A DNA stretch of 64,000 bases from NCBI GenBank assembly GCA_021734125.1, contig JAIPJN010000001.1:26957-90956 (forward strand). Direction: 5' to 3'. Source of the stretch: Patescibacteria group bacterium (GTDB lineage: Bacteria > Patescibacteriota > Patescibacteriia > JAGPKW01). The position numbers and the translations under genes were made by a program. The notes under the pieces are model-generated. The model saw only the letters and a program-made list of their open reading frames with translations, made no database searches and was not told the DNA's origin. This document shows positions 58,688 through 61,650 of the stretch, piece by piece. The stretch's first letter is position 1. The number at the start of each line of letters is the position of its first letter.

Positions 58688-61650
58688 TATATTATAATAT
58701 TTAGTAATTTATTTTCTATAAAGATAGTTTTTCTAATTTCTTTATTTTCAATATATTTTTTTAATTTAGCAGAAGAAATTGCCCTTTCTAATACCTCTTT
58801 TTGAGTTGAATCAATATTCATTTCTATAATTTCTCTTGGCTTTCCATTTATAGATATAACAAATTTTATAATATCATCTTTTATTAGTTTTTTATCATAA
58901 GTAGGCCAATTTACATCTCTTGTAATAATGTTTTTGTTGCCTATTTGACTCCATAATTCTTCTGTTATATGCGGAGCAAATGGGTTTAAAATTATTAAAA
59001 ATTTTTCAAATAAATCTTTTGATATTTCTTTTTCTTTTTTCATGTTATTTGAAAGAATCATCAAACTAGAAATTGCTGTATTAAATGAAAAATTATCTAT
59101 ATCTTCACCAACTTTTTTTATTGTTTTATTTGCTAACTTTTCTATATTTTTATGTTCTACATCATGTTCTACAACTTTATCTTTTAGCTGATAAACTCTT
59201 TCTAAAAATTTTCTCATTCCCAAAACTCCACCCTGACTCCATGATGCACTTTGTGAAAATGGCCCCATAAACATTTCAAATAATCTTAGAGAATCTGCTC
59301 CAAATTCTTCTACTATATTATTTGGATCTATACCATTCCCTTTCCTTTTAGAAATTTTTGTTCCATCTTCTGCCATTACTAAACCAACGTGTAATAATTT
59401 CTGAAAAGGTTCTTTAGTAGAAACCACCCCAAGGTCATACAAAAATTTATGCCAAAATCTGGCATATATTAAATGCCTTGTTGCATGTTCAGCTCCCCCA
59501 ACATATAAATCAACATTCATCCAATATTTTTCTTTTTCTGGATCAACCATTAACTCTTCATTTTTTGGATCTATATATCTCAAATAGTACCAACAAGAAC
59601 CTGCCCATTGTGGCATTGTATTGGTTTCTCTTTTTGCCTCTTCTCCGCATATCGGACATTTAACATTAACCCATTCTTTTATATTTACAAGAGGAGATTC
59701 TCCGGTTCCTGATGGTTCATAATTTTCTACATTTGGTAATTTAAGCGGTAAATCTTTTTTATTAAGTGATACTATTCCACATTTTGGACAGTGTATTATT
59801 GGAATAGGCTCCCCCCAATATCTTTGTCTAGAAAAAACCCAATCTTTTAATTTATAATTAACTTTTTTTCTACCAAATCCTTTATTTTTTGCAAATTCCA
59901 TCATTTTTTCTATAGCATCTTTAGTTTTAAGACCTGAAAACTCACCTGAATTAATAGTAATTCCATGTTCTGTAATAACTTTTCCATTTAAAAATTCTAA
60001 ATCCCTATAATCCTTTTCATACCCTCTTGTTTTTACTTGTTTTTCTTTAAATGCTTTTACAAATCTTTTAGAAATAATAAAATTATCATTAAAGTCTTCT
60101 TCTTTTGTTTCTATAAAATTATTATTAGAGTCTATATCTTTTATACTTATTTCTACTTCTATGTCAGAAAATACACATTTTATTTTTTTATCAGATTCTT
60201 CTTGTATCTTAAAATTTAATTTTTCAATTAATAAATTTTTTATTTGTTTTAAATTATTTTTTTCTACAAATAAATCAATATCCTCATGTTTTCTATATAC
60301 AACTGAAGAATAAATACTACAAGCTAATCCTCCAATTAGCCACATATTTATACTTTCTTTATCTAAAACTTCTTTTATTTTATATAATATATTGAATATA
60401 TTATTAGTTATATTATAATCATCAATATTATATACAACACTTTGTTTTATAGGTAAATTATATTTCTTAGCAAATTCAAAATCTCTAAAATCATGAGCAG
60501 GAACAGCCATTACAGAGCCTGTTCCGTATGAATTTAATACATAATCAGCGATAAAAACTTCTATTTTTTCATTATTAAAAGGATTTATAGCATATATACC
60601 CTCTAGTTTTACTCCATTTTTATCTTTATTTAGATCTGTTCTTTCTAATTCACTTTTATTTTTAATTTTTTTTATATATTCTTCTACTTCTTCTATATTT
60701 TCTATTTTCTCTTTTATTTCTGAAATTATTTTATTTTCTGGAGAAATAACAATATATGTACAACCAAAAATAGTATCTAATCTTGTTGTAAATACTGATA
60801 TTTTATTTAAATTTTTATTGTCTTTTACTATACTAAAATCTATCTCAGACCCCTCGCTTCTTCCTATCCAATTCTTTTGCATTTCAATTATCATATTCTC
60901 CCAGTCTAGAAGTTTTAAATCTTCTAACATTCTGTCTGCATATTTTGTAATTTTTAAAACCCATTGTCTCATAGGTTTTAATTCTGTTTCAGAACCACAT
61001 CTTTCACATTTTCCATTTTCTAAATCTTCATTTGCTAGACCAGTTTTACAAGAGGGACACCAAATTATAGGTTCAAAACTTTCAAATGCAAGTCTATTTG
61101 AATCAATATATTTTTTATCTTCGTTAGATAAAGAATAATAATCTTCTGTTTGAAATTTTTCTTTAATTAATTCTTTAATATCTCGAGCTTTATCTAATTT
61201 TTCATCGTAATAAGAATTATATAGTTTAATAAAAATCCACTGAGTCCATTTGTAATAATCAGGGTTTATTGTCATTATTTCCTTATCCCAATCATAACTT
61301 AATCCTATATTTTTTAATTGATTTTTAAATTTTTCAATATTTTCTAAAGTTGCTTTTTCTGGATGAATTTTATTTTTTATAGCATAATTTTCTGCCGGAA
61401 GTCCAAAAGCATCCCAACCCATAGGATGTAAAACATTATAACCTTGTAAATTTTTATATCTTGAATAAATATCTGTTGCTGCATATCCTTTAGGATGACC
61501 TATATGGAGTCCAGATCCAGAAGGATAAGGAAACATATCTAAAATATAAAATTTTTCCTTATTTTTTTCTTCTTTTGTTTTATAGACATTATTATCTTCC
61601 CAAATTTTTTGCCACTTTTTTTCAATTTCTTTATGTTTATATTCACTCAT
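58687..61650 (-). CDS. leuS: Leucyl-tRNA synthetase carrying an extra nucleotidyltransferase-like insertion
   Basis: HIGH motif [13 protein letters not shown], editing-domain TTRLDT, and KMSKS as KISKRKGN. About 120-130 extra residues (approximately aa 431-560, nt 59970-60360) contain the motif [27 protein letters not shown]. Confidence 0.9.
   Translation of the reverse strand: [987 protein letters not shown]

Follow-up and report, generated by a model that had tools for sequence, protein, structure and literature searches.

What occupies the enlarged editing region of a leucyl-tRNA synthetase (LeuRS) from a Patescibacteria group bacterium, and what might it do there? The gene lies on the minus strand at 58687..61650 of the stretch of DNA analysed here (64,000 nucleotides of contig JAIPJN010000001.1, assembly GCA_021734125.1; hereafter the window), and its 987-amino-acid product, identical to NCBI MCF7795545.1, is annotated merely as 'leucine--tRNA ligase'. 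An initial annotation, made by reading the sequence, had proposed a nucleotidyltransferase (NTase) of the DNA polymerase beta (Pol-beta) type between the end of the CP1 editing domain and the conserved GFGRKK segment; a Pfam profile, a predicted fold and the conservation of motifs now support this proposal, and the 987-residue LeuRS and all of the peptides that had been quoted from it are present in the open reading frame (ORF). The explanation that best accommodates the results as a whole, and which we favor with moderate confidence on the basis of sequence comparisons and structural models, is that a probably active NTase is nested in a surface hairpin loop of CP1, that it was gained recently by recombination between LeuRS alleles, and that the loop which received it behaves as a slot for exchangeable domain cassettes.

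The host enzyme has the attributes of a bacterial-type LeuRS, namely the HIGH and KMSKS signatures (HIGH at residues 49-52 and the KMSKS-like KISKR at 765-769), a CP1 editing domain with threonine-rich and GTG/Asp motifs (TTRLDT and a 15-residue segment, both intact), and an anticodon-binding domain, and it matches the Pfam models PF00133, PF09334, PF13603, and PF08264. The editing-domain model PF13603 scores 195.9 bits in two stretches. The N-terminal part of CP1 (residues ~259-404; 60439..60876, minus strand) covers model positions 1-145 of 185, and up to residue 404 it aligns by phmmer with residues 308-361 of the Thermus thermophilus LeuRS; the alignment resumes from residue 559 with T. 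thermophilus residues 377-435, which correspond to the C-terminal part of CP1 (residues ~560-600, running from a 13-residue peptide to GFGRKKVNY; 59851..59973, minus strand). Between the two lies the inserted domain (residues ~405-559; 59974..60438, minus strand), about 155 extra residues that stand in place of a CP1 loop of 10-15 residues, replacing the 15-residue loop 362-376 of T. thermophilus, equivalent to loop 374-389 in the 877-residue LeuRS of PDB 6Q89. The interval first assigned to the domain, 59970-60360, does fall on the insert and proved slightly too narrow. The enlargement had been put at about 185 residues against about 50 in E. coli, and the count from YNLPIKQ (397-403) to GFGRKK (591) is 187 residues here versus ~48 in T. 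thermophilus; the other quoted peptides are located at residues 375-387 (13 residues), 436-462 (27 residues; 60265-60345), and 591-613 (23 residues).

Sequence profiles assign this block to an enzyme superfamily. By the Pfam criterion it is a member of PF10706 (Aminoglyc_resit, the aminoglycoside 2''-adenylyltransferase family; gathering cut-off, 21 bits), which scored 29.8 bits on the full LeuRS and, with the insert as sole query, 33.9 bits (E = 4e-8). The AbiEii model PF08843 reached 15 bits (E = 0.025) over the N-terminal region only, below its gathering cut-off of 22.5 bits; PF14907 was also below threshold, and PF01743, the head domain of CCA-adding enzymes and poly(A) polymerases, gave no Pfam match at E <= 10. 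A phmmer search of PDB sequences with the insert retrieved ANT(2'')-Ia (E = 4e-4) as well as LnuA and TM1012, and a profile built from 14 homologous inserts retrieved the same three families. The similarity to ANT(2'')-Ia is confined to the N-terminal catalytic half (residues 16-86), where the insert aligns with the RKHDDIDL segment. The NCBIfam 'exception' models for Lnu and ANT(2'') enzymes scored at best 24.1 bits (Lnu(D)) against curated cut-offs of 300-350, and on these scores the domain is outside the ANT(2'')/Lnu resistance families; the known defense-system models of PADLOC gave no match for the NTase.

Structure prediction led to the same superfamily. The insert modeled alone by AlphaFold2 with the 14-sequence alignment had a mean predicted local distance difference test (pLDDT) score of 82 and a predicted template modeling score (pTM) of 0.77, and the full-length LeuRS had a mean pLDDT of 88.6 and a pTM of 0.81, with most of the insert at pLDDT 89-97 and one disordered loop at about residues 505-525. 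The predicted order of helices and strands, H-E-H-E-H-E-E-E-H-H, fits the alpha-beta-alpha-beta-alpha-beta core of the Pol-beta superfamily, and short strands at both ends of the model are in keeping with insertion into a hairpin. Foldseek searches of the PDB returned ANT(2'')-Ia and LnuA at the top (E ~3e-6, template modeling (TM) score ~0.63), followed by MenT1 and TM1012, with a probability of 1.00 to several NTases; more distant matches included CCA-adding enzymes (query-normalized TM ~0.4 for this family) and terminal uridylyltransferases. Of the likenesses that had been suggested, the Lnu type is among these Foldseek and phmmer matches, and the GlnE type was supported by no search. As modeled, residues ~405-559 are shown to be a complete minimal NTase of the Pol-beta superfamily, resembling ANT(2''), Lnu, TM1012, and MenT.

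These results bear on the possibility that there is no real feature here, to which we attach practically no weight; the block would then be either the standard CP2 or leucine-specific region, its motif a coincidence, or the product of a chimeric assembly. All that speaks for it is the general expectation that short NTase motifs can arise by chance. The insert exceeds the gathering cut-off of Pfam and has a confidently predicted fold, structure prediction being a check to which the initial annotation had pointed. Orthologues that lack the insert show a clean 154-residue gap and a loop of 10-14 residues in its place, homologous inserts occur in LeuRSs from dozens of independent assemblies, and neither the frame nor the LeuRS sequence on either side is disrupted. 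The intact frame, the insert-less orthologues, and the homologous inserts led us to reject both an assembly artefact and a canonical leucine-specific domain.

Is the domain likely to be catalytic? Conservation was evaluated in the 14 of the 120 best LeuRS matches that carry an NTase at the same alignment position; these proteins are 951-1129 amino acids long, all belong to the candidate phyla radiation (CPR) or come from unclassified bacteria, and their inserts share 22-38% identity with that of the window. Motifs I and II (W437-L-I-G440-G441, then a 15-residue spacer that includes R453, then D457-I-D459; 60265..60342, minus strand) were delimited from the 14-insert alignment and the phmmer alignment to ANT(2'')-Ia, and I439-G440-G441 together with D457-I-D459 conforms to the hG[GS]...[DE]h[DE]h pattern of the Pol-beta-like superfamily. 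The spacer from GG (440-441) to D457 had been given as 17 residues and is corrected here to 15. Both aspartates of the DxD motif, D457 and D459, are invariant in 14/14 inserts, the conservation among orthologues that the initial annotation had named as a check, and conservation is 90% or higher at G440 and R453. The third carboxylate is retained as E498/E500 on the strand D496-I-E498-V-E500 (60151..60165, minus strand), which matches the (D/G)-h-E-h-D-h pattern of the homologues in a register set by eye, MAFFT having wrongly placed a one-residue gap at this strand; it aligns with GIKVEI of TM1012, whose profile alignment covers the GIEIDI strand, and it is a Glu instead of an Asp both here and in the LeuRS P0013. 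A C-terminal helical motif, K535-x6-R542-x3-K546-D547-x2-D550-x3-L554 (59989..60048, minus strand), was found in alignments of 14 and 7 sequences: R542 is invariant in 14/14 inserts and K535, K546, D547, D550, and L554 are at least 90% conserved, and all six residues are invariant in the 7-sequence alignment.

The insert is under purifying selection. For the pair P0006 and P0007 (loci L004 and L005), the ratio of nonsynonymous to synonymous substitution rates (dN/dS) was 0.18 for the inserted segment versus 0.088 for the remaining gene, values that derive from a single close pair with DNA available and a dS of ~0.74, near saturation; a dN/dS of 0.18 therefore indicates purifying selection, and constraint is strongest at the catalytic residues. 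The initial annotation had left a choice between a functional module and a degenerate structural insertion, and the invariance of the catalytic residues together with this dN/dS favors the former and argues against degenerate filler. The synthetic and editing motifs of the host (HIGH, KMSKS-like, TTRxDT, and GTG..AVPAHD..D) are also intact in nearly all insert-bearing LeuRSs, the exception being P0090, in which GTG..AVPAHD has no match. Because its catalytic residues are intact, the NTase is probably active, and we infer from its motifs that it would transfer a nucleoside monophosphate from a nucleoside triphosphate to a hydroxyl acceptor in a Mg-dependent reaction.

How did the domain arrive in this LeuRS? 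The gene order at the locus, in which subunits of pyruvate:ferredoxin oxidoreductase (POR) are followed by LeuRS, a 97-amino-acid ORF, an O-methyltransferase, and RecQ, is common to relatives without the insert, and the insert therefore resides in the orthologous housekeeping LeuRS and not in a paralogue. The closest relatives, the syntenic orthologues P0002, P0003, and P0004 (843 amino acids; 85-88% amino acid and ~89% nucleotide identity), have no insert and carry the short linker IRESIISEK(E/G)DKEINTDYG opposite the 154-residue block. In a simple neighbor-joining tree of 117 LeuRS cores, the window LeuRS (P0001) falls among these insert-less sequences, and the insert is also lacking from the neighboring clade, P0008-P0015, which makes a recent gain the more parsimonious reading. 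Alignment with other LeuRSs, named at the outset as a means of dating the insertion, would place it after the divergence from relatives that are still 85-88% identical.

The junctions suggest a mechanism. On the upstream side, five of the six codons that lead into the insert (400-405) occur in the window allele only, the stretch reading CCT ATA AAA CAA AGT GTT where the relatives have GAG ATA AGA GAA TCT ATA, with a switch of serine codon at the junction from TCT in the relatives to AGT here; the window codons encode PIKQSV, the junction usual in other insert-bearing LeuRSs. On the downstream side, codons 561-562 (EH) alone are unique to this allele. A codon alignment with loci L006, L007, and L008 delimits a probable imported tract comprising the insert and these unique junction codons (residues 400-562; 59965..60453, minus strand), which was most likely brought in by recombination with a divergent LeuRS allele in which the NTase was already present. 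Two considerations tell against this part of the explanation. It draws on about eight junction codons, and a test of flank divergence that was significant at first (p = 4e-8 versus P0002) involved codons 564-579 (~59914-59961), where two haplotypes with mostly synonymous differences segregate, one in the window and P0003 and the other in P0002 and P0004; since the window haplotype is shared with the insert-less P0003, these codons are not diagnostic of the insertion, and their conflict with the whole-gene tree points to mosaic recombination among close LeuRS alleles that is independent of the insert. The GC content over the insert region (59900-60500) dips to 0.18-0.19, compared with 0.22-0.35 elsewhere in the LeuRS gene, and is consistent with weaker constraint or with foreign origin alike. 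Neither terminal repeats nor a target-site duplication were found at the insert borders, where the only matches were of AT-rich low complexity. An intein was considered and rejected, as the junctions (...KQSV|VYNID... and, at the other end, an 11-residue segment) have no splicing residues and the LeuRS has no Pfam match to a Hint domain.

The same alignment position is occupied by other domains in other CPR LeuRSs, where we found NTases (14 sequences), Nudix domains, a Ser_hydrolase domain, and unannotated domains; the list of 120 top LeuRS matches from which these were drawn is skewed toward NTase carriers, since the query held the NTase, and gives no frequencies. Nudix inserts (PF00293; E from 1e-11 to 1e-14) lie in the CP1 loop of P0017, P0035, P0055, P0067, P0073, P0079, P0081, P0084, P0096, P0100, P0111, P0114, P0115, and P0117 and fall in at least three sub-lineages; 12 inserts match the Nudix-box pattern, 11 of them in the full GX5EX7REUXEEXGU consensus and one in a relaxed form. 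A Ser_hydrolase domain (PF06821) fills the loop in P0032, and at least two unannotated domain types occur there, one of which, with the motif FWNEI.G...F.IF, is shared by P0057, P0095, and P0110. Two more insertion sites were found in LeuRS, after reference positions ~278-281 and 480. P0030 and P0110 have ~183 extra residues after position 480, most likely an alpha/beta hydrolase tied to the site by elimination, and P0088 and P0090 have large inserts after 278-281, with precomputed Pfam lists for these proteins that include ASCH, alpha/beta hydrolase, and PDDEXK_3 and are not mapped individually to the site. Insert types are scattered over the core tree, such that the nearest core neighbor of most NTase-bearing LeuRSs is insert-less or carries a Nudix domain. 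P0016 and P0054 have LeuRS cores that are 75% identical and NTase inserts that are just 24% identical, a contrast which indicates that two NTase subfamilies entered the same site. On this distribution, the CP1 loop behaves as a permissive 'cassette slot' with patchy, exchanged domains. The valyl-tRNA synthetase encoded in the window (877 amino acids; 11515-14148) has no inserted domain.

Does the NTase occur outside LeuRS? When the insert was run as the query of an exhaustive phmmer search against 1.84 billion representative proteins, nine proteins were returned at E <= 1e-3, three of them LeuRSs (32-45% identity over the insert) and the rest small free-standing proteins, among which P0124 (160 amino acids) contains all of the NTase motifs. 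A word-indexed homologue search with the insert alone gave no match, the index being too coarse for a divergent AT-rich domain, and its profile version returned four free-standing proteins only. Scans of loci with one narrow peptide pattern, derived from the 7-sequence alignment and yielding counts that are lower bounds, found at least nine loci in GTDB species genomes (eight in the same LeuRS loop, one in the beta subunit of phenylalanyl-tRNA synthetase (PheRS-beta), none free-standing) and at least 18 in JGI metagenomes (14 in the same LeuRS loop, two in PheRS-beta, two free-standing). Viral contigs yielded no relatives. The B3_4, B5, core, and FDX-ACB domains are complete in each of the three PheRS-beta hosts, whose NTases score 30-32 bits with PF10706; the NTase splits the B5 domain at L012 (2546-5515) and L033 (1498-4533) and the N-terminal tRNA_bind OB domain at L029 (2749-5841). 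The NTases at the two PheRS-beta sites are ~80% identical, as estimated by eye and not computed, a resemblance that suggests the domain moved recently, either inside one pheT allele or from one to another. Neither a PheRS-beta gene nor a second copy of the NTase lies within the 64-kb window.

The free-standing relatives are found in several contexts. P0130 matches the insert of the LeuRS P0054 along its entire length at 54% identity, and the genes for P0130 and P0133 are each followed by a conserved helix-turn-helix (HTH; excisionase-like) ORF of ~61-63 amino acids (L001/L002, 6001-6723; L036, 3123-3843). The pair occurs in two different neighborhoods, one containing RuvA and the other DprA-ComM, and with the same HTH partner in both it looks like a two-gene cassette. 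Downstream of the NTase in L001 are a small SpoVT/AbrB-like ORF and a free-standing Nudix gene; a functional link between the NTase and the latter was considered and dropped, since the Nudix protein has no more than a weak relationship (27% over 96 amino acids) to one Nudix insert of LeuRS. GrpB and DUF6036, both NTase-fold families, are encoded nearby in L036. In L035, a free-standing NTase (2998-3513) sits between an insert-less LeuRS (170-2670) and a convergent alanyl-tRNA synthetase, the order after LeuRS being a 108-amino-acid ORF, the NTase, a small membrane protein, and the alanyl-tRNA synthetase; this LeuRS has an apparent 1-nucleotide frameshift just past RQRYWG (~position 1460). In L034 (1071-1589, minus strand, and 1663-2112), a free-standing NTase adjoins ORFs that by motif reading only are a putative tRNA-splicing endonuclease and a TFE-like protein; the organism behind this contig may be a DPANN archaeon and not a member of the CPR. 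The family is nearly confined to Patescibacteria or CPR-type contigs, in which it takes the form of a free-standing protein of ~160 amino acids, an insert in the LeuRS loop, or an insert at one of two PheRS-beta sites, and the only hosts of the embedded form found so far are aminoacyl-tRNA synthetases (aaRSs).

This distribution could also be produced by a selfish or near-neutral passenger, an in-frame insert in an essential gene that can be removed only by precise deletion and spreads by homologous recombination through the conserved flanks, its activity being irrelevant to LeuRS or the domain serving as structural decoration. Such an element would account for a gain in one lineage among insert-less sisters, for the many unrelated domain types in one permissive loop and at no fewer than two other LeuRS sites, for the close resemblance (by eye) of the NTases at the two PheRS-beta sites, for free-standing copies that travel with a small HTH gene across genomic contexts, and for a GC content below that of the rest of the gene. 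It fits poorly with catalytic and nucleotide-binding residues that are invariant or nearly so at 22-38% identity, with the dN/dS of the insert, and with the full Nudix boxes that the Nudix inserts likewise retain; terminal repeats, a target-site duplication, and intein junction residues are all lacking, and an NTase is not known to have a role in DNA mobility. We regard a passenger as unlikely.

On what would such an enzyme act? CP1 is the LeuRS domain that receives the CCA end of tRNA. We speculate, with rather less conviction than we have in the presence of an active domain, that the aaRS supplies tRNA binding and that the tethered NTase would act on the 3' end of the bound tRNA, either in repair (e.g., by adding A76) or in tagging, or alternatively on a nucleotide ligand of the aaRS. 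The tRNA 3' end is favored as the acceptor because CP1 receives the CCA end and every host found binds tRNA, because free-standing genes adjoin aaRS or putative tRNA-processing genes, because MenT1-4, minimal NTases of similar structure, have tRNA CCA ends as their substrate, and because the x15 spacer, the motif II Arg, and the K...R...+DxxD pattern fit the description of DUF1814 (PMC3985639). MenT1 is an NTase of tRNA 3' ends for which nucleotide binding was modeled by superposition on ANT(2'') (PMC10435456), a superposition which implies that the fold does not separate small-molecule from tRNA substrates.

The window has three tRNA genes in all, for Ile(UAU), Ala(UGC), and Gln(CUG), which lie on the minus strand at 7526-7601, 7658-7733, and 24196-24268; a tRNA-Ile with the anticodon UAU is uncommon in bacteria. 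Their 3' ends consist of the discriminator, CC, and then G (ACCG, ACCG, and GCCG), so that C74-C75 are apparently encoded and A76 is not, and shared CC-G ends of this kind are unlikely by chance in a genome of ~25% GC. A tRNA-Arg gene in the CPR locus L001 has no encoded CC.

Several observations weigh against action on tRNA. No curated family indicates a substrate, the Lnu and ANT(2'') models reaching 24 bits or less and PADLOC nothing; the best sequence matches are small-molecule (antibiotic) NTases and not tRNA enzymes; and the AbiEii Pfam model is sub-threshold (15 versus 22.5 bits). Most of the NTase domains are neutral to acidic (isoelectric point 4.9-7), unlike an autonomous RNA binder; neither net charge nor isoelectric point proved informative about RNA binding. 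The PheRS-beta insertion sites (B5 and the OB fold) presumably do not contact the tRNA 3' end, the presence of unrelated Nudix and Ser_hydrolase domains in the same LeuRS loop suggests that the site was chosen for its permissiveness and not for proximity to a substrate, and the motif II Arg is present in ANT(2'') too, hence is not family-specific.

Some of these observations would be expected if the NTase detoxified small molecules, adenylylating a hydroxyl of an antibiotic-like compound or of a mimic of the aminoacyl-adenylate, with embedding in LeuRS ensuring constitutive expression and the Nudix and hydrolase domains acting as parallel 'house-cleaning' modules. In its favor, ANT(2'')-Ia and Lnu enzymes head the matches by both sequence and fold, the patchy and recently exchanged distribution resembles that of accessory or resistance genes, the alternative inserts hydrolyze small nucleotide or ester substrates, and the overall charge is acidic to neutral. 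The scores, however, are 10-15 times under the curated cut-offs of every resistance family, the likeness to ANT(2'') spans the catalytic N-terminal half only and no substrate-binding region, and detoxification leaves unexplained why the module occurs only in or beside aaRS genes. The known targets of these antibiotics are ribosomal and not LeuRS. We consider detoxification improbable, if a little less so than the passenger.

A third possibility is a domesticated toxin of the MenT/AbiEii type, in which the tethered NTase would extend the CCA end of tRNA-Leu under starvation or phage attack and thereby act as a built-in brake on translation instead of a repair enzyme. MenT1 is among the structural matches, the x15 spacing from GG to DxD, the Arg four residues ahead of the first Asp, and the K...R...+DxxD pattern agree with the DUF1814 motif description (PMC3985639), the Lys-to-Asp spacing of 15 equals that of MenT1 K137/D152 (PMC10435456), and the free-standing relatives are paired with a small HTH gene in the manner of toxin-antitoxin systems. 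Set against this, PF08843 is under threshold and PADLOC is silent, no antitoxin-like partner lies near LeuRS (the downstream ORF of 96-97 amino acids is also present in insert-less relatives), R-x3-DxD is also found in ANT(2'') so that the motifs do not discriminate between the families, and the constitutive fusion of a toxin to an essential enzyme would be costly. A toxin seems to us very unlikely.

A broader and less probable extension of the proposed action on tRNA, which we put no higher than detoxification, is that aaRSs serve CPR bacteria as docking platforms for exchangeable enzyme cassettes and that this NTase, attached to the very domain in charge of the tRNA 3' end, is a minimal tRNA 3'-end enzyme which borrows the tRNA-binding body of the synthetase. 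If that were true, the NTase could restore A76 on tRNAs encoded with ..CC alone or tag mis-processed tRNA, which would constitute a previously unknown step of tRNA quality control built into an aaRS, with the Nudix and hydrolase cassettes as alternative add-on activities.

Bacterial aaRSs are regarded as architecturally conservative. That aaRSs acquire accessory domains and that the minimal NTase fold exists were known; what is unusual here, as read from the sequences, is the nested position, the intact catalytic motifs, the cassette polymorphism, and the recurrence in a second aaRS, and the searchable literature yielded no account of an NTase or a Nudix domain lodged in LeuRS or PheRS-beta. 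The content of the slot differs among close relatives, ranging from no insert at all to NTase, Nudix, hydrolase, and unknown domains, and the same NTase has entered PheRS-beta independently. The locus offers a concrete, testable example of how ultra-small CPR genomes gain and exchange accessory enzyme functions through essential genes, and possibly of a direct coupling of aminoacylation or proofreading with nucleotide-transfer chemistry on tRNA. It also matters for annotation and phylogenomics, as these proteins are labeled plain 'leucine--tRNA ligase' and their inserts can distort marker-gene alignments.

How does this arrangement compare with known systems? With ANT(2'')-Ia (AadB), Lnu(A/D/P), and PF10706 the insert shares a minimal NTase of ~160-180 amino acids with an N-terminal helix, W-h-h-GG, R-x-H-x-D-h-D, and a third carboxylate on the next strand, but those enzymes are free-standing on mobile resistance elements where this one is embedded in an aaRS, scores far below the curated cut-offs, and shows no sign of an antibiotic substrate. 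TM1012 (PDB 2EWR, 2FCL, and 4HX0) is of comparable size, its profile alignment extends from the N-terminal helix to the third-carboxylate strand, and it is a Foldseek match; it differs in being free-standing and has no known function, and its profile E-value is only ~5e-3. MenT1-4 and AbiEii (DUF1814) have the same fold (Foldseek rank 7, TM 0.55) and, by the definition in PMC3985639, the same GG-x15-DxD spacing and motif II Arg (R453, four residues before D457), and the C-terminal Lys and Asp of the insert are 15 residues apart like K137/D152 of MenT1 (PMC10435456). The conserved C-terminal K...R...KDxxD residues resemble in pattern DUF1814 motifs III (Lys/Arg) and IV (+DxxD), a likeness for which homology would be putative. 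The substrate of the MenT family, the tRNA 3'-CCA end, is also the ligand of the CP1 domain that hosts the insert. In contrast to MenT, the insert is fused in-frame into an essential enzyme, has no adjacent antitoxin gene and the same LeuRS neighbors as insert-less relatives, and has a His at the position phosphorylated as Ser/Thr in MenT, two residues before the first Asp.

CCA- and A-adding enzymes and terminal uridylyltransferases, the distant Foldseek matches, likewise have a Pol-beta core that acts on RNA 3' ends, and whereas they possess large neck, body, and tail domains for binding RNA, the aaRS would hypothetically supply the tRNA binding here. Inteins and homing elements share with the insert an in-frame position in a conserved essential gene, a patchy distribution, and spread between alleles, but the insert has no Cys/Ser/Thr start, His-Asn end, or endonuclease, and the domain stays in the mature protein. 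The add-on domains of eukaryotic aaRSs (WHEP, GST, EMAPII, and UNE-x) and CP1, which is itself a Rossmann-fold insertion, are similar in that an aaRS serves as a scaffold that gains domains; those additions are terminal or ancient and fixed, unlike a catalytic domain that is nested in CP1 and varies between close relatives. In a survey of domain insertions from 2026, PF13603 was recorded only as an inserted module, with no event in which it acted as host (PMC13114784), and the nested insertion described here contradicts the generalization that the LeuRS editing domain is never a host.

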